DNA from: Candidatus Omnitrophota bacterium
GTDB taxonomy: Bacteria; Omnitrophota; Gorgyraeia; Gygaellales; Profunditerraquicolaceae
Length of the DNA: 64,000 nucleotides
Assembly (NCBI GenBank): GCA_050012075.1
Contig: JBEKHW010000002.1
Coordinates: 47,518-111,517 of the forward strand
Reading direction: 5' to 3'
The notes below the pieces were generated by a model that was given only the letters and a program-made list of their open reading frames with translations, did no database searches and had not been told where the DNA came from. The position numbers and the translations under genes were made by a program. The number at the start of each line of letters is the position of its first letter. Position 1 is the stretch's first letter. Shown here in pieces: positions 2,716 to 62,996 of this stretch.

Positions 2716-3675
2716 ATGCTTTTTCAAGGGTATTACCCAAAATCTTTTTGCCGGGAATACGTAGAAGTGATGGGCGCATCTACGCAGCTGTCCATGTTTA
2801 TGGCGACTGTGCTCGGAATAAAGCCGTTAATGGATGACTGGGTGCCGGTAGCCAAGCTCAATGAGTTTAAGAAGGTTTGCAGGAAATACGGCTTGAAGAT
2901 AAGGGAAGACGTTATTTTTAAAAGCATTCCAAAAGAGAATCTTTCGCCTTCTATCCTGGGCAGGGAGTGCATCACTACTACCAGCGCTTTCGCAAGCCCG
3001 TTAAATTCCGGTAGCAGAGGACAGGTCCATTTATTCATATCCAAAAGTAATTCTCTTTTAAGGAAAGGGATGTGGTATCCTGTTATCATCAAAAACAGGG
3101 TAATCGTTCAGCCGCGGATGGACAGCCTGAGATACGGATATGTTTTGGGGTATCCTGACTGCTGCATCAAATTCTTCCGGAAATATAACAACTGGATAAA
3201 ATACAGCCATCTTTATGAAATATACAGAAATACGCATAATAAACCCTCTTTTTTGTGCAATCCGTTTCTTAAAGATACGACCTTTTCATATATATATCAT
3301 ATGCCCTGCGGCTATGATTGCACGCAAACTATAAGATTAGCCGGCAAGTTAAGGAAAGCGATAAAGAGAAGGGAACCGGCATACGTGCAATTGGCTGATA
3401 AGCATCTTAAGATGCCTTTCTTAGTTTTTTACGAAAGGAAATTTTATTGTTTTTCAGGAAAGATTAACGGCGGGCTCCTGAGCTATGATAAAGTATATTT
3501 TCCTTCACCGGATAAAGCGCAGGATGCATACGGAAAGCTCCTGGCAGAAGGCGACCGTTTGGAGCTAGAAGGCAGAAAGTTGATCGTCTACCGTAAAAAC
3601 AAAAAGATTAAGATCGCAGATATTCCTCTTAATAATTTTGCCCCTGCGTACCCATTTTTGATACAGTTCTCTTAA
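2716..3675 (+). CDS. hypothetical Cys-rich protein, divergently transcribed from the SPASM rSAM gene
   Basis: 319-aa ORF, 22 nt from the divergent rSAM start. Carries GYPDCC and HMPCGYDC cysteine motifs. No family recognised. Confidence 0.45.
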   Translation: MLFQGYYPKSFCREYVEVMGASTQLSMFMATVLGIKPLMDDWVPVAKLNEFKKVCRKYGLKIREDVIFKSIPKENLSPSILGRECITTTSAFASPLNSGSRGQVHLFISKSNSLLRKGMWYPVIIKNRVIVQPRMDSLRYGYVLGYPDCCIKFFRKYNNWIKYSHLYEIYRNTHNKPSFLCNPFLKDTTFSYIYHMPCGYDCTQTIRLAGKLRKAIKRREPAYVQLADKHLKMPFLVFYERKFYCFSGKINGGLLSYDKVYFPSPDKAQDAYGKLLAEGDRLELEGRKLIVYRKNKKIKIADIPLNNFAPAYPFLIQFS

Positions 3676-3680
3676 AGACC

Positions 3681-5771
3681 ATGAAGATTTTACATATTAG
3701 TTGCAATAAATACCATCCCTGCCTATGGCGGATGATTAAGGTGCAGGCAAGGAATAACGATGTTTCTTTATTCCTGCTGAATTTTGGAGAATATAACAGT
3801 ACCTCGATAGGCAAAAAATATAATGAAGATGGTGTCCAATTTGTGGAAATAGATACGAAAAAAGCAGTGATTTATAATCAGGATAGCTCTTTAGAGGATG
3901 TTTTCCGTGATTTATTAAGAATATATAATCCCGATGTCATCCATATCCATGTTTTTTCAGGAATCAACCTTTTTTCTCTACTGGCTGTATCCTGTAGCCT
4001 GGAAATAAAGAAAGCGCTGACTTTGCATGACCATTCTCTTTTCTGTATCCGTGGCACAATGCATGATGGCCGCGGTGTATGCAGTATGGATTCATTTATG
4101 CAATGCTCATGCAGCACCAATCAGTATCATGCGAAGGCGAAAGACAGATCACCGAAGGAATTCAATCTTTATCGGGAAGAGCTATCCAGAAGGGTAGTTA
4201 ATATGTGCGATAAAATAATCTGTTGTTCTGATGCGCAAAAAGAAAAACTCGAGCAGCTATTCGGAAAAAATGAAAAATTTGTTACTCTTTACTACGGCGT
4301 AGGGTTGCCTAAAGTTCATAAGCGAATAAAGAAAAAGTCAGGTATAGCTACCTTCGGCTTTCTTGGTAATTTAGCTTCTTTAAAGGGTATAGAGATATTA
4401 GAAGAGGCGGTGCCTAAGCTATCGCAGCATAAATTCAGGTTGCTGATGGCTATACACTATCGAGATGATGCTCCTGACAAAAATGAATACTTAAAAAGGC
4501 TGCAGAAGTGTAATAACATAGAGTTGCTGCATAATGTTGAGTATAACGAGCTTTATACCAGGTTTTTCAGCCAAATCGACTGGTTAATTATTCCTTCTCT
4601 TTGGGAGGAGACCGGGCCGATGACCCTTTTTGAGGCATTTTTTTATAAAGTGCCGGTTATAATTTCCAATCGTAAAAGTATGGTTGAGAAGATCCGGGGT
4701 AACAGGAACTCCAGGGTCTTCAAAAATACCGATATGTTGGTAAGAATAATGAAGGGGATCATCTCGCGCAGAATCAGGAAAAAGATGCCCGATTCATTCA
4801 AGGCAAAGGGCATCAAGACCTATGCGAATGAAATCATAGCTTTGTATAGAGAGCTTCTTGTAAAAGAAGAAAAAACCCTTGTCCTGAAGACCGGTTATTT
4901 ATGTAATAATAACTGTATTTTCTGCGTAACCGGAGACAATACCCCGCGGGAATTCGTGAATTTCAGCTTCCTGGTAAAAACGCTGGAGAAATACAGGGGG
5001 CTTTATGAGAGGGTTACGCTTACCGGGGGCGAGCCGCTTTCACGGAAAGATATTCTTAATATCCTGGAATTCTGTTATAGGCTCGGATATAAGATCACCC
5101 TGCAGACCAATGCCAGGCAATTTGCCGATAAGGATTTCTGCCGGAGCATAAAATATTTAAACTTGGATATCATCACGCACCTGGAAAGCTACAAACCGAA
5201 GATACACGATGTAATTACCAGGGTACAAGGGAGTTTTTATGAGACGGTAAGCGCCATAGTTAATTTAAGGCAATATTGCGCGAGCATATCGGTAAAGATA
5301 ATGATGACAAGCTTGAATTACAGGCATATTCCAACTACCGCGCGCTGGCTAAAGAAATTAAAAGTGGATGAGGTATGGTTTGTTTACCTGACTCCCTACG
5401 GCCACGCGTTTACTTATTTTGATTTGATAACCCCGCATTATTCCGAAGTAAAGCCGTATATACGCCAGGCCGTGGAGCTGCTCGGAGGAAATAAAGGTCC
5501 CAAGATAGCCGTAGAGGGAGTCCCTTTTTGTTGCGTAAACGGGGGAATAAGAAAACTTATTCTTGATAAAAAGCAGGCGGACCAATATTGTAGATGCGGC
5601 GTATATCCTGCCGCTTCCGGAGAAAGCCGGTACTATTGCTTTCCGGAGAGGGAGAAGCAGAAACAGAAGTTTGGGCGGTGTAAGCTTTGTAAATTCGACA
5701 GCATATGCGAAGGCGTTTACGCAAGGTATGTAGAAAAAATGGGGGAGAGGGAATTTAATCCGGTGTTTTGA
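3681..5771 (+). CDS. fusion protein: N-terminal GT4-like glycosyltransferase plus C-terminal radical SAM/SPASM-like domain
   Basis: Residues about 1-400 have the GT-B/GT4 signature EETGPMTLFEAFFYKVPVI. Residues about 400-696 carry CNNNCIFC (CxxxCxxC), a GGEPL SAM-binding motif and a C-terminal Cys cluster (CCVNGG, CRCG, CKLCKFDSIC). Confidence 0.7.
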   Translation: MKILHISCNKYHPCLWRMIKVQARNNDVSLFLLNFGEYNSTSIGKKYNEDGVQFVEIDTKKAVIYNQDSSLEDVFRDLLRIYNPDVIHIHVFSGINLFSLLAVSCSLEIKKALTLHDHSLFCIRGTMHDGRGVCSMDSFMQCSCSTNQYHAKAKDRSPKEFNLYREELSRRVVNMCDKIICCSDAQKEKLEQLFGKNEKFVTLYYGVGLPKVHKRIKKKSGIATFGFLGNLASLKGIEILEEAVPKLSQHKFRLLMAIHYRDDAPDKNEYLKRLQKCNNIELLHNVEYNELYTRFFSQIDWLIIPSLWEETGPMTLFEAFFYKVPVIISNRKSMVEKIRGNRNSRVFKNTDMLVRIMKGIISRRIRKKMPDSFKAKGIKTYANEIIALYRELLVKEEKTLVLKTGYLCNNNCIFCVTGDNTPREFVNFSFLVKTLEKYRGLYERVTLTGGEPLSRKDILNILEFCYRLGYKITLQTNARQFADKDFCRSIKYLNLDIITHLESYKPKIHDVITRVQGSFYETVSAIVNLRQYCASISVKIMMTSLNYRHIPTTARWLKKLKVDEVWFVYLTPYGHAFTYFDLITPHYSEVKPYIRQAVELLGGNKGPKIAVEGVPFCCVNGGIRKLILDKKQADQYCRCGVYPAASGESRYYCFPEREKQKQKFGRCKLCKFDSICEGVYARYVEKMGEREFNPVF

Positions 5772-6916: not shown

Positions 6917-8893
6917 ATGATACTTAAAAAAAGAACATATTTTCTTATTTTTATTTTGATCTTTTTCTCAGTGCTGTCCGTGTATTCCAATACCCTGCGT
7001 AATCCTTTTATATGGGATGATAACGCGATTATTGTGCATAACAGCCTGATCCAGGACTGGCATCTATTGGGAAAGGCGTTTACGAGTGATCTCTTCTATG
7101 GCGTAGCTTCCGGCTCAAATTTTTACCGGCCGCTACAGACAATTTCTTATATGTCGGATTATTACTTCTGGGGCCTTAAGCCGTTAGGGTATCATATTAC
7201 TAATATACTTCTGCAGGCCGCACTTTCTTTTTTGGTCTTTATTTTTCTTTTTATGCTGTCTGGCAGAGCGGAAATCTCTTTTTTTAGTGCGCTTCTTTTT
7301 GCGGTAAACCCCCTGCACACAGAATCAGTGACTTACCTTTCCGGACGCGCCGAGATGCTGATGGGGATTTTCTTGCTGACATCATTTATCTTTTTTGTCA
7401 AGGGGCAAAATTGCCGGAAGAATTACCGTTTGCCGCTTTATTTATTATCAGTGGTAGCGTTCATTCTTGGTTTATTATCGAAAGAACTGGCAGTGGTTTT
7501 TCCGCTGGCCATACTTGCCTATCTTTTTTATTTTAGGAAATCTAACAAGGCAGCGATATCCTGGAAAACATCTCCATTTTTTGTTATTTCACTGGTTTAC
7601 GTTTTATTAAGGCTCACCTTGTTAAAGTTCCCTACTTTTAGGCCACCGACTTTGGCAGGCGTCCCGTTTCTTTTTAGGATGTCGGTTTTATTCAAAGCGC
7701 TGTTTATGCAGGCCAAGCTCCTGATTTTGCCGGTTAATCTGCATATGTCTTATCAATTAGTAATGCCGACGACTTTTTTAGGGATTTTCTTATCCTGGTT
7801 TATTTCAGGTGTGGTTGTAGTTTTTGCTGCATATATTTTACGCAATAAAAAGAAAAATGCCCTCTTCTGTTTTTTATTTTCCTGGTATCTGATTTTTCTT
7901 CTTCCGCAGTCAGGGATTTTGCCTATCAATGCCTTTTTTGCTGAACACTTTCTATATTTGTCTTCGATAAGTTTTCTTACAGGAGTTTTATTAATTTTAC
8001 AACGGTATTTAAAGAAACCATTATTTTTGTTTTCTTTTGTTTGTCTTTTTGCCGCTTACGGCGTCCTTACTTACGCCCGTAATCTTGAATGGTCTAGCCC
8101 CCTTGCATTCTTCCAGGGGATAGTGAAACTATCGCCTGGAAGCTTTCAGGGATACAATAACCTGGGTTTAGAATACGAAAAGAACGGGGATTATCAAAAA
8201 GCGATATCCTGTTACAAAAGGGCGTTACAGATAATGCCTGAACTTTTGGATGCGCACTTTAACCTGGCTAACCTCTATTTTAAGACCGGAAAATTAAAAG
8301 AAGCGCTGGATGAATACTCTGTTATTGAAAAGACTCACCCTGGAGATAAATCAGGGCAGGTGCAGAATAATATCGGTAATGTATTGGAGGCTCAAGGGTT
8401 ACCGCAGGCGGCCATAAAAAGATACAAGATAGCCTTGCAACTGGATAAAAACCTCTATTATGCCCATTTTAATCTCGCGCGTATCTATATGGGGCAGGGA
8501 AAAACCGGATCATCTGTTGAAGAGATAGTTGTTTCTCTGGGGTTACAGGTAGATAATGCAGAGACAGACGGGGTTATCATCCGGCAGATAATTACCCGTT
8601 TTCTTGAAGAGAAAAAAATGTTAAATTCCGCGGATATTTTTTATAATAATCTGGGAGCAAAATTAGCAGGAAGCGGAATTTTTTATGCGGCAGCTTCTGC
8701 TTTTAAGAGGGCGCTGGAGATCGAGCCGGCTTATGAAGATGCGCATTTTAATCTCGCTCTTAGTTACCTGAAGATGGGGATGAGGAATAGGGCAGTTTCG
8801 CAATTAAACTCTTTGCTCAAGATAGATCCGCAGCATCATCGCGCCAGGAGCCTTTTACTGGAGATAAAGAAAAATGTTAGCCGCAGTCAATAA
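6917..8893 (+). CDS. TMTC-like GT-C membrane glycosyltransferase with C-terminal TPR repeats
   Basis: N-terminal polytopic domain with FIWDD in the first loop, a DD motif typical of GT-C. C-terminal multiple TPR repeats (LGLEYEKNGDYQKAISCYKRAL...). Confidence 0.55.
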   Translation: MILKKRTYFLIFILIFFSVLSVYSNTLRNPFIWDDNAIIVHNSLIQDWHLLGKAFTSDLFYGVASGSNFYRPLQTISYMSDYYFWGLKPLGYHITNILLQAALSFLVFIFLFMLSGRAEISFFSALLFAVNPLHTESVTYLSGRAEMLMGIFLLTSFIFFVKGQNCRKNYRLPLYLLSVVAFILGLLSKELAVVFPLAILAYLFYFRKSNKAAISWKTSPFFVISLVYVLLRLTLLKFPTFRPPTLAGVPFLFRMSVLFKALFMQAKLLILPVNLHMSYQLVMPTTFLGIFLSWFISGVVVVFAAYILRNKKKNALFCFLFSWYLIFLLPQSGILPINAFFAEHFLYLSSISFLTGVLLILQRYLKKPLFLFSFVCLFAAYGVLTYARNLEWSSPLAFFQGIVKLSPGSFQGYNNLGLEYEKNGDYQKAISCYKRALQIMPELLDAHFNLANLYFKTGKLKEALDEYSVIEKTHPGDKSGQVQNNIGNVLEAQGLPQAAIKRYKIALQLDKNLYYAHFNLARIYMGQGKTGSSVEEIVVSLGLQVDNAETDGVIIRQIITRFLEEKKMLNSADIFYNNLGAKLAGSGIFYAAASAFKRALEIEPAYEDAHFNLALSYLKMGMRNRAVSQLNSLLKIDPQHHRARSLLLEIKKNVSRSQ

Positions 8894-24957: not shown

Positions 24958-25554
24958 TTGATGCTTTATTATGTAGGAAAATTTCTCTGTTTTTTGATAT
25001 ATGGCACGTTTTTGCATCTGCGGGTAGAAGGACGCCAGAATATCCCGCGGCGGGGAGGTTTTATTATCGCCTCCAATCATATCAGTTATCTTGACCCGCC
25101 AGGCGTCGGAGTTGCCTGTCCGCGCAGGTTAAGTTACATGGCAAGGCATGATTTATTCAGTAATCATTGGTTTTCTTGGGCTCTTCCTTCTATTGGTTGT
25201 TTCCCGGTGAAAAGGGGCTCCGCGGATATATCCGCCTTAAAAGAAGCAATACGCCGGGTGAACAACGGAGGAGGATTACTTCTTTTTCCCGAGGGGGCGC
25301 GCCAGGAGGCTCATATTGCAAAAGAGCCGGAGGCGGGAATAGGTTTTCTGGTAGCGAAATTAAATGTTCCGGTTATTCCTGTTTACGTAAGAGGAACAGA
25401 AAAAGCGTTATCCAAGGGTTCCAAGTTTATAAAACCTGCGAAGGTTTCTGTTTGCTTCGGCAGACAAATTCAGATAGAAAGGGGGAAGTCGTACCAGGAG
25501 ATAGCATCTACGGTAATGTCGCACATAAGGGCTTTAGGCCTAGAACACAAATAA
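24958..25554 (+). CDS. plsC: 1-acyl-sn-glycerol-3-phosphate acyltransferase
   Basis: NHISYLD (HX4D) and FPEGAR motifs. Confidence 0.75.
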   Translation: MMLYYVGKFLCFLIYGTFLHLRVEGRQNIPRRGGFIIASNHISYLDPPGVGVACPRRLSYMARHDLFSNHWFSWALPSIGCFPVKRGSADISALKEAIRRVNNGGGLLLFPEGARQEAHIAKEPEAGIGFLVAKLNVPVIPVYVRGTEKALSKGSKFIKPAKVSVCFGRQIQIERGKSYQEIASTVMSHIRALGLEHK

Positions 25555-25575
25555 GTGAGTCCGCCAAAGTTCTGT

Positions 25576-25745
25576 GGCGGACGAACTTATCCCCCCGCGT
25601 TTTTGTATAGCAGGGGGGTTAATTCACAGACGCTTATAGACAATTAAAATAACAAACGCTATGTCTTACGTCCCCAGCACTTATTTGCTTAAGTTAAAGT
25701 CAGTTCAAATAAGTGCTGGGTTCCGTAAGCCATCTGTTCATTAAA
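25576..25745 (+). repeat. intergenic conserved element family A, copy 1 (candidate structured RNA / repeat)
   Basis: Shares GCGGAC..TTATCC, TAATTCACAGACGCTNATAGACAA, ACGCTA and TCTGTTCATTAAA boxes with 60645-60778. Its two hairpins, CCCCCC/GGGGGG and CCCAGCACTTATTTG/CAAATAAGTGCTGGG, are replaced by different but still self-complementary sequences in copy 2. Confidence 0.45.
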
Positions 25746-25760
25746 AGGAGAAATACTCAA

Positions 25761-27302
25761 ATGTCCGATACAAGAAATGAATTAGAAGAGCTTTATAATC
25801 AAAGCATAAAGTTGATTCGCGAAGGCCAGATAATTACCGGAAAGATAGTTTCCGTTGGCCGTAAAGAAGTTTTGGTGGACGTGGGGTTTAAGTCCGAAGG
25901 GATCGTCCCGCTTGCAGAGTTTACGCAACATGATTTAGAGGTAGGCAAAGAACTGGAATTCTTTGTGGATTCCCTTGAGAACGATGCCGGGGGTATCGGA
26001 TTATCGCGCGAGAAGGCGATACGTATACACGGCTGGGATAAAATCGTAAAATTCTCCCAGACGGGTGAATTGACCGACGGCAGGCCTGTCAAGAAAGTAA
26101 AAGGCGGATTCCTGGTAGACGTGATGGGTATCGAAGGATTCCTGCCCTCATCGCTTTCTGCTTTTAAAAATGTGCCTGACAGGGAGATTATGAATAAGTT
26201 CTTTAAATTCAAGATTGTCAAAGTAAATAATCTCAGGCGCAGTATTATCGTAAGCCGCCGCGAGGCCGTGCAGAAGGAAAGAGACGAGGTTAAGGATAAG
26301 CTGTGGCAGGAGTTTAAGATAGGAGATATACGTACAGGCACGGTAAAGGCAATTACTGATTTCGGCGCTTTTGTCGATATGGGTGGAGTCGACGGGCTAC
26401 TGCATATTACCGATATGTCCTGGTCTAAGATCAGCCATCCTTCTGAAGCGGTTGCCATAGGCGACAAGATAGAGGTAATGGTTCTTAATTTTGACAAAGA
26501 ACATGGCAAGGTTTCCTTGGGTCTAAAACAGAGATTGCCTGATCCTTGGCAGGAGATAGACACAAAATTCAAAGTAGGCGATAAGATAAAAGGCAAGGTA
26601 GTTAATATCGTTGCATACGGTGTTTTTGTGGAATTGGATAAGGGTATCGAAGGCCTGATACATATCTCGGAGATATCCTGGACCAAACGCGTCTCTAATC
26701 CAAATGAAATGTTTGCCGTAGGGGATATGGTAGAGACGCAGGTATTGAATATCGATAAGGATGCGCGTAGAATCTCCCTTAGCCTTAAGCAACTGGAAGC
26801 TAATCCCTGGCTTGAGGCCGAGGCAAAATACCCTGTAGGCACAAAGGTATCGGGAAAGGTGAGAGGGTTTGCCGAATACGGCGCTTTTGTGGAACTGGAT
26901 AACAGCCTCGAAGGTATGATTCACGTTTCTGATATTTCCTGGACAAAAAGGATAGCGCATCCCCAGGAGGTATTAAAAAAAGGACAGAAGGTGGAAGTAG
27001 TAATCCTTACCGTAGATGCGCAAAACCGGCGCATTTCCCTTGGGCTCAAGCAGCTGCAGCCGAATCCCTGGCCGGAAATATCGGTAAAATATCCTCTGGA
27101 TACTGTATTAGAGGTAGAGGTAATCAGCCTTACTGATTTCGGCGTGTTCGTGAAATTAGAACCGGAGTTGGAAGGGTTGGTTTACTCAAGCGAGATTGAT
27201 AAGGAAGTAGCTGCTAACCTTAAAGCCGGAGATAAGATTAAGGTGAAGGTGATAAAGGTTGATACGGAGCAAGCAAAGATTGGTCTTAGCGCAAAGATAT
27301 AA
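25761..27302 (+). CDS. rpsA: 30S ribosomal protein S1
   Basis: Multiple tandem S1 domains. Start chosen at the ATG preceded by AAGGAG rather than the upstream in-frame ATG at 25713. Confidence 0.9.
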   Translation: MSDTRNELEELYNQSIKLIREGQIITGKIVSVGRKEVLVDVGFKSEGIVPLAEFTQHDLEVGKELEFFVDSLENDAGGIGLSREKAIRIHGWDKIVKFSQTGELTDGRPVKKVKGGFLVDVMGIEGFLPSSLSAFKNVPDREIMNKFFKFKIVKVNNLRRSIIVSRREAVQKERDEVKDKLWQEFKIGDIRTGTVKAITDFGAFVDMGGVDGLLHITDMSWSKISHPSEAVAIGDKIEVMVLNFDKEHGKVSLGLKQRLPDPWQEIDTKFKVGDKIKGKVVNIVAYGVFVELDKGIEGLIHISEISWTKRVSNPNEMFAVGDMVETQVLNIDKDARRISLSLKQLEANPWLEAEAKYPVGTKVSGKVRGFAEYGAFVELDNSLEGMIHVSDISWTKRIAHPQEVLKKGQKVEVVILTVDAQNRRISLGLKQLQPNPWPEISVKYPLDTVLEVEVISLTDFGVFVKLEPELEGLVYSSEIDKEVAANLKAGDKIKVKVIKVDTEQAKIGLSAKI

Positions 27303-28484: not shown

Positions 28485-28587
28485 CTACTCACCCTCCCGT
28501 TACACTTTCCTTCCCATGAGATACAAATATTCCGCAAAAATCTCGTTTTGAGGCGGATATTTGCATTCTTTTCCAGCAATTAACTCT

Positions 28588-28615
28588 TTGCAATCAAAGG
28601 ATTTAATGATATAAT
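28588..28615 (+). promoter_or_regulatory. sigma70-like promoter upstream of rmlA
   Basis: TTGCAA, a 16-nt spacer, then TATAAT. Confidence 0.4.
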
Positions 28616-28632
28616 AATTTTTTAAATTATAG

Positions 28633-28690
28633 TTCCGCGCATAGCGCGGAGTAAAATAAACGATACCTCTGGTGTATATCGTTTATTTTA
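28633..28690 (+). promoter_or_regulatory. conserved double-hairpin leader element (family B, copy 2)
   Basis: TCCGCGC-ATA-GCGCGGA hairpin, then AAATAAACGATA...TATCGTTTATTT hairpin, then AAAGGGAG RBS. Same architecture as copy 1, with compensatory G/A and C/T changes in both stems. Confidence 0.4.
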
Positions 28691-28705
28691 AAGGGAGAGC
28701 AAGGT

Positions 28706-59632: not shown

Positions 59633-59693
59633 TTTCCGCCGGAGGCGGATCAGCCTACGGCTGACATGGTTCATAGTTGATAGTTCATAGCAG

Positions 59694-60635
59694 ATGAAAA
59701 TCATATTCTTTGGAAGCGATAAATTCGGAGTCCCGTCTTTAAAAGCGCTATCTTTAGCAGGCTATCATATTTCCTGCGTAGTTACCCAGCCGGACAGGCG
59801 TAAAGGCCGGGGTTTACATTTTGAAGGGACCCCCATTAAGGAAGCAGCCTTTGAGCTAGGGGTTAAGATTTTTCAACCCAGGGATGTTAATTCCAAAGAA
59901 TCATTAGAATACCTTAAAAAAATCGGCGCAGACCTTTTTATAATTATCGCTTATGGCCAGATTTTTTCTCAGGAAACATTGGATTTGCCGAGAATAATGC
60001 CGATAAACCTGCATGCCTCGCTTTTGCCGGCATACAGGGGGGCCGCCCCCATCAACTGGGCGATAATCCAAGGAGAAGGCAAAACTGGCGTAACGGTTGT
60101 CAAGGTTATTCGAAAAATGGATTCAGGACCGGTTATTTTGCAGGAGGAAGCGCCTATTATAAAGGAGGATTCGGTTATAACCCTCGAGGATAAATTAGCC
60201 CAGGTAGGCGCAAAGATCCTTATGGAAGCAATGGTGAAAATAAGTAATAAAAGTTATAAGCTGATCCAGCAGGATGAAAAGAAGGCTAGCCTTGCGCCAA
60301 AATTAAAGAAGTCCGATGGCGCGATCAATTGGGACAGTCCCCCAGAAGATATATATAATCTTATCAGGGGCTGTGCCGGCTGGCCCGGGGCATTCGCGTA
60401 TTACAACGGTAAATTATTAAAGATATATAAGGCAAAAATTAGTTCGCAAGTTCGCAAGTTCGCAAGTTCTAATCCCGGAGAAATCCTGGAAGCCTCCAAA
60501 GAAGGAATAGTTGTATTAACAGGGAAGGGTAACATTATCATAGAGGAATTGCAGATGGAAGGAAAGAGGATTATGAGCGCGGCCCAATTCTTAAGCGGGC
60601 ATAAAATATCCGCAGGCGAACGTTTCGGGACATAG
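59694..60635 (+). CDS. fmt: methionyl-tRNA formyltransferase
   Basis: MKIIFFGSDKFGVPSLKAL, HASLLPAYRGAAPI. Confidence 0.9.
   Translation: MKIIFFGSDKFGVPSLKALSLAGYHISCVVTQPDRRKGRGLHFEGTPIKEAAFELGVKIFQPRDVNSKESLEYLKKIGADLFIIIAYGQIFSQETLDLPRIMPINLHASLLPAYRGAAPINWAIIQGEGKTGVTVVKVIRKMDSGPVILQEEAPIIKEDSVITLEDKLAQVGAKILMEAMVKISNKSYKLIQQDEKKASLAPKLKKSDGAINWDSPPEDIYNLIRGCAGWPGAFAYYNGKLLKIYKAKISSQVRKFASSNPGEILEASKEGIVVLTGKGNIIIEELQMEGKRIMSAAQFLSGHKISAGERFGT
60441..60470 (+). repeat. in-frame 9-nt tandem repeat (AGTTCGCAA x3) inside fmt
   Basis: Direct reading of agttcgcaagttcgcaagttcgcaagttc. Encodes SSQVRKFASS. Confidence 0.6.
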
Positions 60636-60644
60636 ATTATACGT

Positions 60645-60778
60645 GCGGACTTATCCCACACCCAGCCAACAAACTTACATAGCTATGGTTATCTGGGTGT
60701 GCTAATTCACAGACGCTGATAGACAAGCAAATTACAGACGCTACAACCCCGAAGCTTCGGGGTTGTCTGTTCATTAAA
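60645..60778 (+). repeat. intergenic conserved element family A, copy 2
   Basis: Same conserved boxes as 25576-25745. Hairpins CACACCCAG/CTGGGTGTG and ACAACCCCGAAG/CTTCGGGGTTGT replace the copy-1 hairpins. Confidence 0.45.
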
Positions 60779-60785
60779 TTTTTAG

Positions 60786-60813
60786 TTGCATTTATGATTA
60801 GATATGCTACAAT
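60786..60813 (+). promoter_or_regulatory. sigma70-like promoter candidate upstream of the GalT-like pair
   Basis: TTGCAT, a 16-nt spacer, then TACAAT. Confidence 0.3.
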
Positions 60814-60887
60814 TTAGCTCTACAATCGGTACTTTGAAACAGGATTTTACTATGAATCATAAGCTATCAACTATGAACTAAACGAAA

Positions 60888-61915: not shown

Positions 61916-62917
61916 ATGTCTGAACTGCGCAAAGACCCCATCTGCGGAAGATGGGTGATAGTGGATACGGACCACCCGAATAAGCCGGAAGATTTTGAAT
62001 ACGAACCTCAGGCATATAAAGGCGGAGTGTGCCCTTTTTGTTACGGCAATGAAGCAATGACTCCTCCAGAAATAGAATCCATAAGGGACCCTTCTACCGG
62101 CCCTAATACCTCCGGTTGGCAGGTGCGCGTTGTCCCGAATAAATTTCCCGCCCTGCAGATTGAAGGGGATTTGGACAGGCGCGGGATAGGGATTTATGAT
62201 ATGTCCAGCGGCATCGGAGCGCATGAGGTCTTAATCGAGAATCCCTATCACCAGAAGGATATCCATGAGCTTCTGGATTCCGAGGTGGAGAATTTCTTGA
62301 GTATGTATTGCCGTAGGTCCCTAGACCTGGCAAAGGACAAGCGCTTTAAATATATAATGATTTTTAAGAATTTCGGCGCTGCTGCGGGCGCGTCTCTTGA
62401 GCATCCTCATACGCAACTTATTGCCCTGCCCATGATTCCTAAGAATGTATTGGATGAAATAAAGAGGGCGCACAGTTATTTTGAATTCCGCGAACGGTGT
62501 ATTTTTTGCGATATCGTCAGGCAGGAGCAGCAGGAGAAAGAAAGGATTATCCTTGAAAACGAGGATTTCCTGTCCTTTTGTCCTTTTGTTTCGCGTTTCC
62601 CTTTTGAAATATGGATCATACCAAAGAAACATAATGAGCATTTCTGCCGTATTTCCCAGAGTAATGAAATACCTGCCCTGGCGCGAATATTGAAAGCGAC
62701 CATCGCAGGATTAAAAGCCGTGTTTCCGAATCTTTCATACAATTTTATTATACACACGTCTCCTGTTAACGGGGATGGCGGAGTCGAAGGTTACCATTGG
62801 CATATTGAACTTATGCCTAAATTGACCCGCGTGGCAGGTTTTGAGTGGGGGACAGGATTCTATTTAGTACCCACCCCTCCGGAACTCGCAGCAAAATACC
62901 TGAGAGAAAAACAATAA
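61916..62917 (+). CDS. GalT-like nucleotidyltransferase with intact HPHTQ active-site motif
   Basis: RWVIVDTDHP...CPFCYGNE, FGAAAGASLEHPHTQLIALP, YHWHIE. Confidence 0.7.
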   Translation: MSELRKDPICGRWVIVDTDHPNKPEDFEYEPQAYKGGVCPFCYGNEAMTPPEIESIRDPSTGPNTSGWQVRVVPNKFPALQIEGDLDRRGIGIYDMSSGIGAHEVLIENPYHQKDIHELLDSEVENFLSMYCRRSLDLAKDKRFKYIMIFKNFGAAAGASLEHPHTQLIALPMIPKNVLDEIKRAHSYFEFRERCIFCDIVRQEQQEKERIILENEDFLSFCPFVSRFPFEIWIIPKKHNEHFCRISQSNEIPALARILKATIAGLKAVFPNLSYNFIIHTSPVNGDGGVEGYHWHIELMPKLTRVAGFEWGTGFYLVPTPPELAAKYLREKQ

Positions 62918-62996
62918 GTGAGCGCATAAGTTATGGAGATAGCGGTTTAAGTTAGTCAATCGACATAGCTTAGACCAGTTATAGCGGGCAAATTAA

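Follow-up and report, generated by a model that had tools for sequence, protein, structure and literature searches.

Mosaic palindromic repeats, probably REP-like and of a new type, in intergenic spacers of Omnitrophota

We analyzed a 64-kb stretch of DNA from a Candidatus Omnitrophota metagenome-assembled genome (MAG), referred to as the window (G+C 42%, nearly all genes on the + strand), in which two intergenic elements, one upstream of rpsA and one upstream of two galT-like genes, share sequence boxes separated by hairpins. These elements are probably a mosaic, REP/BIME/REPIN-like interspersed palindromic repeat of a new type, found in some Omnitrophota that are not each other's closest relatives. 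The window holds two copies and one decayed third copy of that repeat, and not a dedicated rpsA or galT regulatory RNA. The original prediction, made from the two copies alone, had proposed a structured RNA or a repeat and had leaned toward a functional RNA family, either a cis-regulatory leader or a small RNA (sRNA); further copies exist and bear out the repeat, while the RNA family is not supported.

Results

The conserved boxes are the flanks of a repeated palindromic unit

Direct reading of the two copies agrees with the earlier description of four boxes in the same order in both, and of four perfect hairpins between them (CCCCCC/GGGGGG and CCCAGCACTTATTTG/CAAATAAGTGCTGGG in copy 1, CACACCCAG/CTGGGTGTG and ACAACCCCGAAG/CTTCGGGGTTGT in copy 2). 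For box 2, the 21-nt core TTCACAGACGCTNATAGACAA has two exact occurrences in the window (25623 and 60706), where 0.01 would be expected; box 3 likewise has an exact match twice, and a gapless 39-nt match between the copies shows 82% identity. The boxes are not, however, the conserved single strands that had been proposed. The start of box 2, TTAATTCACAGA, and box 3, TCTGTTCATTAA, are mutual inverted repeats in which TTAAT pairs with ATTAA and ACAGA with TCTGT, with a TC/TC mismatch between the two helices, and GAACTTA of box 1 is the reverse complement of this same flank type. The boxes are flanks of a repeated palindromic unit rather than independent single-stranded motifs: box 2 is the left flank of a forward (Y) unit together with a 31-nt promoter-like insert, and box 3 is the right flank of that unit.

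The frame of the unit reads 5'-GGG-N5-TC-(variable stem-loop)-TC-N5'-3', where N5 and N5' pair (e.g., TTAAT/ATTAA or TAAGT/ACTTA), and the ends conform to GGG-TWART-TC ... TC-AYTWA, with GTAG or CGTC at neither end. Units are palindromic, extragenic and 38–126 nt long, simple ones such as TTAATTC-GCGCATATAACTTAC...GTAAGTTATGCGC-TCATTAA measuring 51–74 nt, and many Y units contain a 31-nt non-palindromic insert with promoter-like hexamers. GG(G/A) precedes 12/12 aligned units, and the TC/TC internal loop is constant across 18 units except for one TT. Reverse (Z) and forward (Y) units have this frame and a core, ATAACTTATG...CATAAGTTAT, in common. On the other strand the first hairpin of the composite elements also has the frame, TAAGTGAG-...-GAACTTA being the reverse complement of TAAGTTC-...-CTCACTTA, and box 1 is therefore the flank of a reverse-orientation unit.

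Pairing statistics were calculated on 18 units from four genomes, namely the window, L084 (identical to L001), L002 and L015. Frame positions were paired in 169/180 cases versus 128 ± 5.9 with shuffled right flanks, a count reached by 0/10,000 shuffles. Pair counting gave 93.5% paired positions, a fraction somewhat inflated by units that were collected with a pairing-requiring scan, and 7/10 pairs had changed on both sides; the flank types TTAAT/ATTAA, TCAAT/ATTGA, TAAAT/ATTTA and TAAGT/ACTTA come from sequence-based matches and not from that scan. Covariation amounted to 0.615 versus 0.206 (0/500), and the signal was lost on sliding the partners. The flanks thus covary strongly around variable hairpins, whereas the differences between the hairpins themselves are module swapping or nesting. 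A palindrome family, CCCAGCAC, occupies the spacer-hairpin (H1) slot in L084/L001 (4 copies) and the inner-loop slot in copy 1, and from these different slots it follows that hairpin "replacement" is not base-by-base compensation. What had appeared as covarying hairpins would then be different unit subfamilies and nested palindromes.

Composite elements are inverted doublets

Ten composites, from the window, L084, L002 and L025, have the form of an inverted doublet, in which a Z unit (reverse) is followed by a CCC...GGG spacer hairpin and a Y unit (forward). Copy 1 lies between the plsC-like acyltransferase gene and rpsA and spans 25552–25744. It had been placed correctly upstream of rpsA but made to begin at 25576, the 5' arm of a GTCCGCC/GGCGGAC hairpin having been missed, of which the "GCGGAC" of the earlier description is the 3' arm. 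Its Z unit (25552–25589, minus strand) reads TAAGT-GA-GTCCGCC..GGCGGAC-GA-ACTTA, and the minimum free energy structure comprises a 5-bp outer stem, a 2x2 internal loop and an 8-bp stem. The first three bases of this unit are the TAA stop of the acyltransferase gene, and its last 7 nt plus GGAC make up box 1. Against R1, a covariance model built from 12 aligned units, it scored 31.7 bits (E = 1e-5, minus strand), the unit having been in the seed alignment. The spacer hairpin H1 follows at 25590–25618 (T-CCCCCCGC..GCAGGGGGG), its CCC/GGG ends being the GGG tags of both flanking inverted units.

The Y unit of copy 1 (25619–25744, + strand) is of an expanded type, with boxes 2 and 3 forming its ends. 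TTAAT at 25619–25623 and ATTAA at 25740–25744 make the outer stem, followed by the TC/TC internal loop and a closing stem of ACAGA (25626–25630) and TCTGT (25733–25737). Predicted promoter-like hexamers on the + strand (TTCACA-16 nt-TAAAAT, 25623–25650) in the Y insert (25631–25661) have 10/12 consensus matches to the sigma-70 hexamers, and ACGCTA at 25656–25661 lies at about the position where transcription from them would be expected to start. The inner hairpin (25661–25733, + strand; ATG-T-CTTACG / CGTAAG-C-CAT) corresponds to hairpin 2 and is itself composite. Its outer CTTACG/CGTAAG stem is homologous to ATAACTTACG/CGTAAGTTAT, the usual stem of the family, a compensatory change having turned one A-T pair into G-C, and encloses a second palindrome at 25673–25720 (CCCAGCACTTATTTG at 25673–25687, CAAATAAGTGCTGGG at 25706–25720) that belongs to a separate palindrome family. 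A Shine-Dalgarno (SD) sequence, AGGAG at 25746–25750, and the rpsA start codon at 25761 (together 25745–25763, + strand) adjoin the right end of the element, and the junction of element end and SD, TCATTAAAAGGAGG, recurs in L015 (at rpsA) and L084 (at skp). Folded as RNA, copy 1 reached −71.4 kcal/mol (z = −6.85), with 0/200 shuffles as good.

Copy 2 lies between fmt and the first galT-like gene, at 60643–60777. Its Z unit is 5'-truncated (60643–60653, minus strand), having lost all but its 3' arm, GTGCGGAC, and its (C)TTA flank, and is followed by spacer hairpin H1 (60654–60701; TCC-CACACCCAG..CTGGGTGTG, arms at 60657–60665 and 60693–60701). The expanded Y unit (60702–60777, + strand; CTAAT-TC-ACAGA ... 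TCTGT-TC-ATTAA) carries an insert at 60714–60742, with a second ACAGACGCT at 60734, and an inner palindrome, ACAACCCCGAAG/CTTCGGGGTTGT, at 60743–60766; this hairpin 2 was the only one flagged by a terminator scan of the gene strand, which passed over the H1 hairpins of both copies. As RNA, copy 2 had z = −2.79, again with 0/200 shuffles as good. The fmt coding sequence is native up to its TAG stop (60633–60635), and the Fmt C-terminus aligns with those of relatives L092 and L093, so we rejected the idea that the element encodes this C-terminus.

Downstream of copy 2 and outside the element, comparison of sequences and the sigma-70 consensus point to a native galT promoter at 60786–60813 (+ strand; TTGCAT-16 nt-TGC-TACAAT). 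It is conserved in element-free relatives (TTGCAT-16-TAGAAT in L093, TTGCAT-16-TAAAAT in L092), and in L093 the fmt stop adjoins the −35 of the promoter, TTGCAT-16-TGnTAnAAT. Copy 2 thus lies upstream of the galT transcription unit and is not a galT leader. Between this promoter and the start codon of galT, at 60852–60881, is a nine-codon open reading frame (ORF), ATGAATCATAAGCTATCAACTATGAACTAA, which may encode a leader peptide or have arisen by chance.

The third unit is a decayed solo Z unit at 62915–62985 (minus strand), which reads TAA-GTGA-GCGCATAAGTTATGGAG..., the TAA being the second galT-like gene's stop, and has a degenerate right arm. It scored 14.2 bits against R1 (E = 0.39), resembles the left arms of the L084 units at 7230 and 7796, and forms a ~67-nt insertion relative to L092.

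Further copies occur in other genomes and are missing from close relatives

Among 87 loci (1.3 Mb in total) scanned with R1, matches were found only in L084, L002, L015 and L025. The last of these is a more distant Omnitrophota MAG with the element between tRNA-Trp and secE, a copy found by the covariance model and missed by nhmmer profiles. A box 2 scan of metagenome contigs returned two contigs (L084/L001 and L002), and these, together with the rpsA locus L015, revealed many of the simple units. In total we count 18 units in four genomes, plus the covariance-model match in a fifth (L025). Because further copies exist, the two copies in the window are not a segmental duplication, an explanation the original prediction had also thought unlikely. 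An exact box 2 scan of a genome collection gave 0 matches, a strict regular expression for the frame had no match in eight control loci, and an extra 10 kb from the related strain L090 contained no units. Pattern scans of viral contigs likewise gave 0 matches, and a viral origin was rejected on that basis.

L084, a 12.2-kb contig with the gene order bamA-skp-lpxD-lpxC/fabZ-lpxA-lpxI-CBM48-radical SAM, alone accounts for 15 R1 matches, and its repeat blocks of 74–129 nt are 93–95% identical between different spacers. Orthologous spacers measure 3–71 nt in close relatives versus about 105–723 nt where elements are present. The lpxA/lpxI spacer is 235 nt in L084 versus 9 and 3 nt in L088 and L089 (LpxI 85% and 79% identical), and the lpxI/CBM48 spacer is 722 nt versus 71 and 60 nt in the same two relatives. 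In the window, the plsC/rpsA spacer is 206 nt versus 26 nt in a relative with 88% identical S1, the fmt/galT spacer 252 nt versus 62 nt in L093, and the galT2/gap spacer 105 nt versus 37 nt in L092. These differences identify the elements as lineage-specific insertions, which extend from the upstream gene's stop codon to the SD or ATG of the gene downstream. Between the elements inserted into the L084 lpxI/CBM48 spacer, the ancestral promoter, TTGACA...TATAAA, can still be recognized.

The "empty" lpxI/CBM48 spacer of L088 (1362–1434) reads TAAGT-ATGGTGGCATTTT-ATTAA-AGGAGG and contains both outermost 5-mers of the L084 composite, which may be an excision scar, a preferred target or a coincidence.

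One spacer, bamA/skp, carries a composite in two genomes (L084 1355–1547 and L002 8322–8463) whose Skp proteins are only 57% identical. The spacer hairpins of the two composites are wholly different and the Y unit of L002 is 3'-truncated; conservation, homogenization or repeated insertion may each account for this recurrence alike.

Strand symmetry fits a DNA repeat

Folding free energies summed over the elements were −519 kcal/mol for the gene strand and −540 kcal/mol for the opposite strand, with 13 and 22 G-U pairs, respectively, the stems being nearly pure Watson-Crick on both, and both unit orientations are present within one transcription unit. Rfam gave no family match for the whole window at the gathering score. 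At E ≤ 10, both copies and L001/L002 drew only sub-threshold microRNA-type hairpins and a rimP match of 24 bits against a 47-bit threshold, which we dismissed as generic hairpins. The failure to match a known Rfam element fits something undescribed and is no argument for an RNA. Strand symmetry, the two orientations, the inverted flanks and the lack of an Rfam family fit DNA palindromes of the REP/BIME/REPIN type.

Other intergenic observations

A second shared intergenic family occurs in the window at 18542–18716, upstream of rplU, and at 28485–28705, upstream of rfbA. Its members have, in order, a sigma-70-like promoter, a hairpin (C)TCCGCRCATAGYGCGGAG, and a hairpin TAAAATAAACRAT...ATYGTTTATTT leading into AAAGGRAG and ATG. 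The tyrS/rfbA spacer is 12 nt in the relative with 88% identical S1, from which it follows that the second family at rfbA is a lineage-specific insertion as well. The priA/fmt spacer of the window (59633–59693) contains two small hairpins (TCCGCCGGAGGCGGA and TCAGCCTACGGCTGA) and then a direct repeat, GTTCATAGTTGATAGTTCATAG. In L084, the end of lpxD and the lpxD/lpxC spacer (3440–3545) contain GGTTAAC(C/A) six times, including a 20-nt tandem duplication, AAGGTTAACCGAGGTTAATC; in L089, lpxD and lpxC overlap and leave no spacer. At L089 4728–5000, ARAGORN calls only tRNA-Arg(TCG) at 4820–4895, which is flanked by apparent 5' and 3' halves of another tRNA (GCGCCCATAGCTCAACTGGATAGAGCGCC... and ...GCAGGTTCAACTCCTGCTGGGCGCA); this arrangement suggests a tRNA gene interrupted by ~190 nt containing a whole tRNA.

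Discussion

REP elements carry an unpaired GTAG or CGTC tetranucleotide at one end (PMC3733652), and REP, BIME and REPIN repeats are small extragenic palindromes, often in spacer-separated inverted pairs, that occupy positions directly 3' of coding regions where neighboring genes run in the same direction (PMC3733652, PMC3116915). The elements described here resemble those of E. coli, Pseudomonas and others (PMC3733652, PMC3116915, PMC2817692) in being extragenic palindromes, single or in opposed pairs with a hairpin-forming spacer, and in forming mosaic clusters of distinct unit subtypes with conserved linkers that are transcribed within operons. Further points of likeness are a position between co-directional genes just 3' of coding regions (true of all copies here), the lack of target duplication, and a lineage-specific yet persistent occurrence. 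They differ in their signature, which is GGG, a covarying 5-bp outer stem and a constant TC/TC loop in place of GTAG/CGTC; in unit length (about 40–90 nt versus 20–40 nt for REP); in an inner stem that varies by subfamily within a constant frame; in the 31-nt non-palindromic, promoter-like insert of some units; and in the low number of copies in the window and the lack of a RAYT gene among the window ORFs scanned or the L084 gene marks. Since these units are longer, have neither tag and are accompanied by no RAYT or other transposase in those gene sets, we file them as a new variety outside the known REP superfamilies, that is, as an undescribed repeat family of a recognizable kind. The literature that we searched held no paper tying Omnitrophota to REP, MITE (miniature inverted-repeat transposable element) or REPIN repeats, and the main Omnitrophota genomics paper makes no mention of repeats, intergenic regions or transposases.

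The elements would move as DNA, in the form of single strands that fold into hairpins and are acted on by some enzyme. Because there is neither a target-site duplication nor a long conserved terminal repeat, that enzyme would recognize the structure together with a short tag, in the manner of HUH/Y1 transposases. Transcribed along with the neighboring genes, the elements would yield highly stable hairpins in the RNA, which may shield 3' ends, dampen read-through or undergo processing, and the Y insert may supply a promoter that offsets polarity.

Several observations weigh against a REP-like repeat. The published GTAG and CGTC tags are absent, the 64-kb window holds just three units, Pfam found no transposase domain among the ~50 window ORFs scanned or in the L084 gene marks, and the paired fraction profits from the pairing-requiring scan noted above. 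All composites (10/10) have the same polarity relative to the genes, with Z upstream and Y downstream, a uniformity that needs selection or a strand-specific mechanism; 7/10 Z units overlap the stop codon of the preceding gene; and nine Y ends immediately border an SD (rpsA in the window and in L015, skp, CBM48, ssb) or an ATG (lpxD, lpxI, radical SAM, secE). The lpxA gene of L084 terminates at the element's TGA, a few codons shorter than in relatives. The same bamA/skp spacer is filled in two diverged genomes, a Y unit stands upstream of rpsA in both the window and L015, and between L084 and L002 identity is 84% in the Z units against 74% (bamA) and 66% (skp) in the adjacent coding DNA. Host function, site preference or homogenization fits the placement at stop codons and SDs, the conservation of units and the recurrent spacers as well as selfish spread does. 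These features could be explained by selection for tolerated insertions, by homogenization, or by strand-specific single-strand transposition in a genome whose genes are co-oriented with replication, and also by a host function such as protection of mRNA 3' ends, attenuation, a promoter in the Y insert or proximity of stop and SD.

The alternative that survives best develops this last point and holds that the elements are a domesticated intercistronic punctuation cassette kept for its function in cis, with which a mobile origin is compatible. We regard it as unlikely. The Z end would provide stop codons, the hairpins would protect or terminate the upstream mRNA, TTCACA-16-TAxAAT in the Y insert would act as a promoter, the inner Y hairpin would become a stabilizing 5' stem-loop, and the right flank would lie against the SD. 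The uniform polarity and the placement of Z units over stop codons and of Y ends at SD or ATG argue for such a role, as does the fact that units are more conserved than the flanking coding DNA between L084 and L002; in the predicted fold of copy 1, moreover, the hairpins would bring the stop codon near the next SD. The promoter-like site of copy 1 (10/12 consensus) and the alignment of seven Y inserts, with a −10-like hexamer whose A at position 2 is invariant in 7/7, point the same way, and in L002 ~30 nt separate the insert from the skp SD, with no other feature in that interval. The hexamer is, however, variable across the seven inserts; the −10 is poor in copy 2 (CAAATT, where a promoter scan called nothing), L084-skp (TAAAAC) and L002 (TAACAA), and one copy has a 15-nt spacer. 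Most inserts are recent paralogues, which makes their conservation a poor guide. Copy 2 and two L084 units precede a native promoter or further hairpins rather than a gene, close relatives do without the element, and lpxD, lpxI and the radical SAM gene start straight after the hairpin without an SD, which resembles tolerated damage more than design.

A bolder version of the mobile-repeat reading, speculative and in our judgment quite unlikely, would make the elements a previously undescribed superfamily of structure-recognized mobile palindromes, co-opted in small, densely packed Omnitrophota genomes as portable intercistronic modules that split or rewire operons. It would have a signature of its own (GGG tag, covarying 5-bp outer stem, constant TC/TC loop) and be moved by some enzyme. 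If that were true, each insertion would bring stop codons, RNA hairpins keeping the upstream stop near the downstream SD, and an internal promoter, and the recurrence at bamA/skp and upstream of rpsA in diverged lineages would be explained.

A classical MITE, descended by deletion from an insertion sequence of the DDE-transposase kind and marked by terminal inverted repeats and a TTAA or TAA target-site duplication, is improbable. TTAA bounds most units on both sides, left ends coincide with TAA stops, and the units are short and non-coding with inverted termini, all as a MITE would have it. Yet flanks that are not self-complementary are reverse complements of each other and not direct repeats (TCAA..TTGA in L002, TAAG..CTTA, TAAA..TTTA), so that they belong to the stem of the palindrome, and we rejected a TTAA/TAA duplication on this ground. 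MITEs are defined by conserved terminal repeats of 15–30 bp (PMC3733652), whereas only ~3 nt (TTC/TCA) are conserved beside the flank here and the inner stems differ by subfamily. The same differences set the elements apart from Correia/NEMIS of Neisseria and other transcribed MITEs (ERIC, RUP, Nezha), which they resemble as small, gene-adjacent, co-transcribed repeats whose robust hairpins alter mRNA fate (a general statement in PMC3733652): those have terminal inverted repeats of 15–30 bp, TA duplication and DDE transposases, while here there is no duplication and a minimal terminus.

A structured cis-regulatory RNA leader or riboswitch-like family, the preferred interpretation of the original prediction, is very doubtful and, judged on sequence comparison, largely refuted. 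Ribosomal protein S1 gene rpsA is autoregulated in other bacteria, copy 1 stands directly upstream of rpsA and folds strongly (z = −6.85), the flanking stems covary, and L015 also has a unit upstream of rpsA. In 16/17 relatives examined, the closest included, there is none upstream of this gene, and among the 80 rpsA loci that we gathered the upstream regions showed no conservation, for which reason an orthologous rpsA leader was rejected. The genes flanking the elements are functionally unrelated (rpsA, galT, gap, skp, lpxD, lpxI, ssb, secE). The supposed signature of a functional RNA is not borne out: orthologous spacers of the closest relatives do without the element, a single unit type is found in either orientation in one transcript, the stems pair almost entirely by Watson-Crick rules and G-U pairs are no more frequent on the gene strand than on the other, the "single-stranded" boxes pair together, one palindrome family occupies differing slots, the native galT promoter is downstream of copy 2, and Rfam has no match.

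Upstream of rpsA, close relatives without the element (L007–L016) share GTAAAGGAGGTG(T)TTG, a conserved block ~90 nt from the ATG; this near-perfect SD-like sequence may be a decoy or standby site for S1 autoregulation.

An sRNA gene of ~40–90 nt, with its promoter in box 2, a start near ACGCTA, and hairpin 2 plus the U-containing box 3 as terminator, is extremely improbable: hairpin 2 of copy 2 was flagged as terminator-like and copy 1 has promoter-like hexamers, but in copy 1, as in most copies, box 3 is followed at once by an SD and a start codon, which would make the transcript the leader of an mRNA. The tail CUGUUCAUUAAA forms a weak U-tract, what is left unpaired is too short and too variable to serve as a seed region, and the evidence from insertion and orientation counts here too. 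A dedicated leader or sRNA of either sort is thus an improbable account of these elements.

Other known systems offer partial parallels to the repeat. Correia elements can carry promoter elements. BOX elements of Streptococcus pneumoniae are modular intergenic repeats of boxA, boxB and boxC, with a variable number of modules and predicted stable structures near genes; set beside them by description, the elements here are likewise modular, intergenic and structure-forming near genes, but BOX elements have tandem boxB between A and C rather than inverted palindromic doublets and belong to a different phylum. MIRU of Mycobacterium and RPE of Rickettsia are tolerated at gene boundaries or inside genes by keeping frames or stop and start signals, and the Z end here, TAARTGA, gives stops in two frames. 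MIRUs, however, are tandem and non-palindromic with small ORFs, and RPEs lie in frame within genes and have a CGTC tag (PMC3733652). Integron attC sites share the short conserved flanks around a variable imperfect palindrome, the position between co-oriented genes and, as proposed here, the recognition of folded single-stranded DNA; the genes here are core genes in conserved synteny rather than cassettes, and the R''/R' core sites (RYYYAAC/GTTRRRY) and an integrase are absent.

Omnitrophota are, to our knowledge, a candidate phylum without cultured isolates. If the reading as a REP-like repeat is right, some of its lineages have their own type of REP/BIME-like repeat, outside the GTAG and CGTC superfamilies. 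The current understanding of bacterial repeats would not be overturned, but the phylogenetic and structural range of REP-like elements would be wider, and the finding would point to a mobilizing enzyme behind them. For genomics there are practical consequences: assemblies of the repeat-rich lineage fragment at these repeats, and "conserved structured motifs" between the genes of such organisms ought not to be read as riboswitches. The elements also provide a natural experiment, in which co-directional spacers of 3–70 nt tolerate a structured insert of 100–700 nt placed exactly between a stop codon and a ribosome-binding site.

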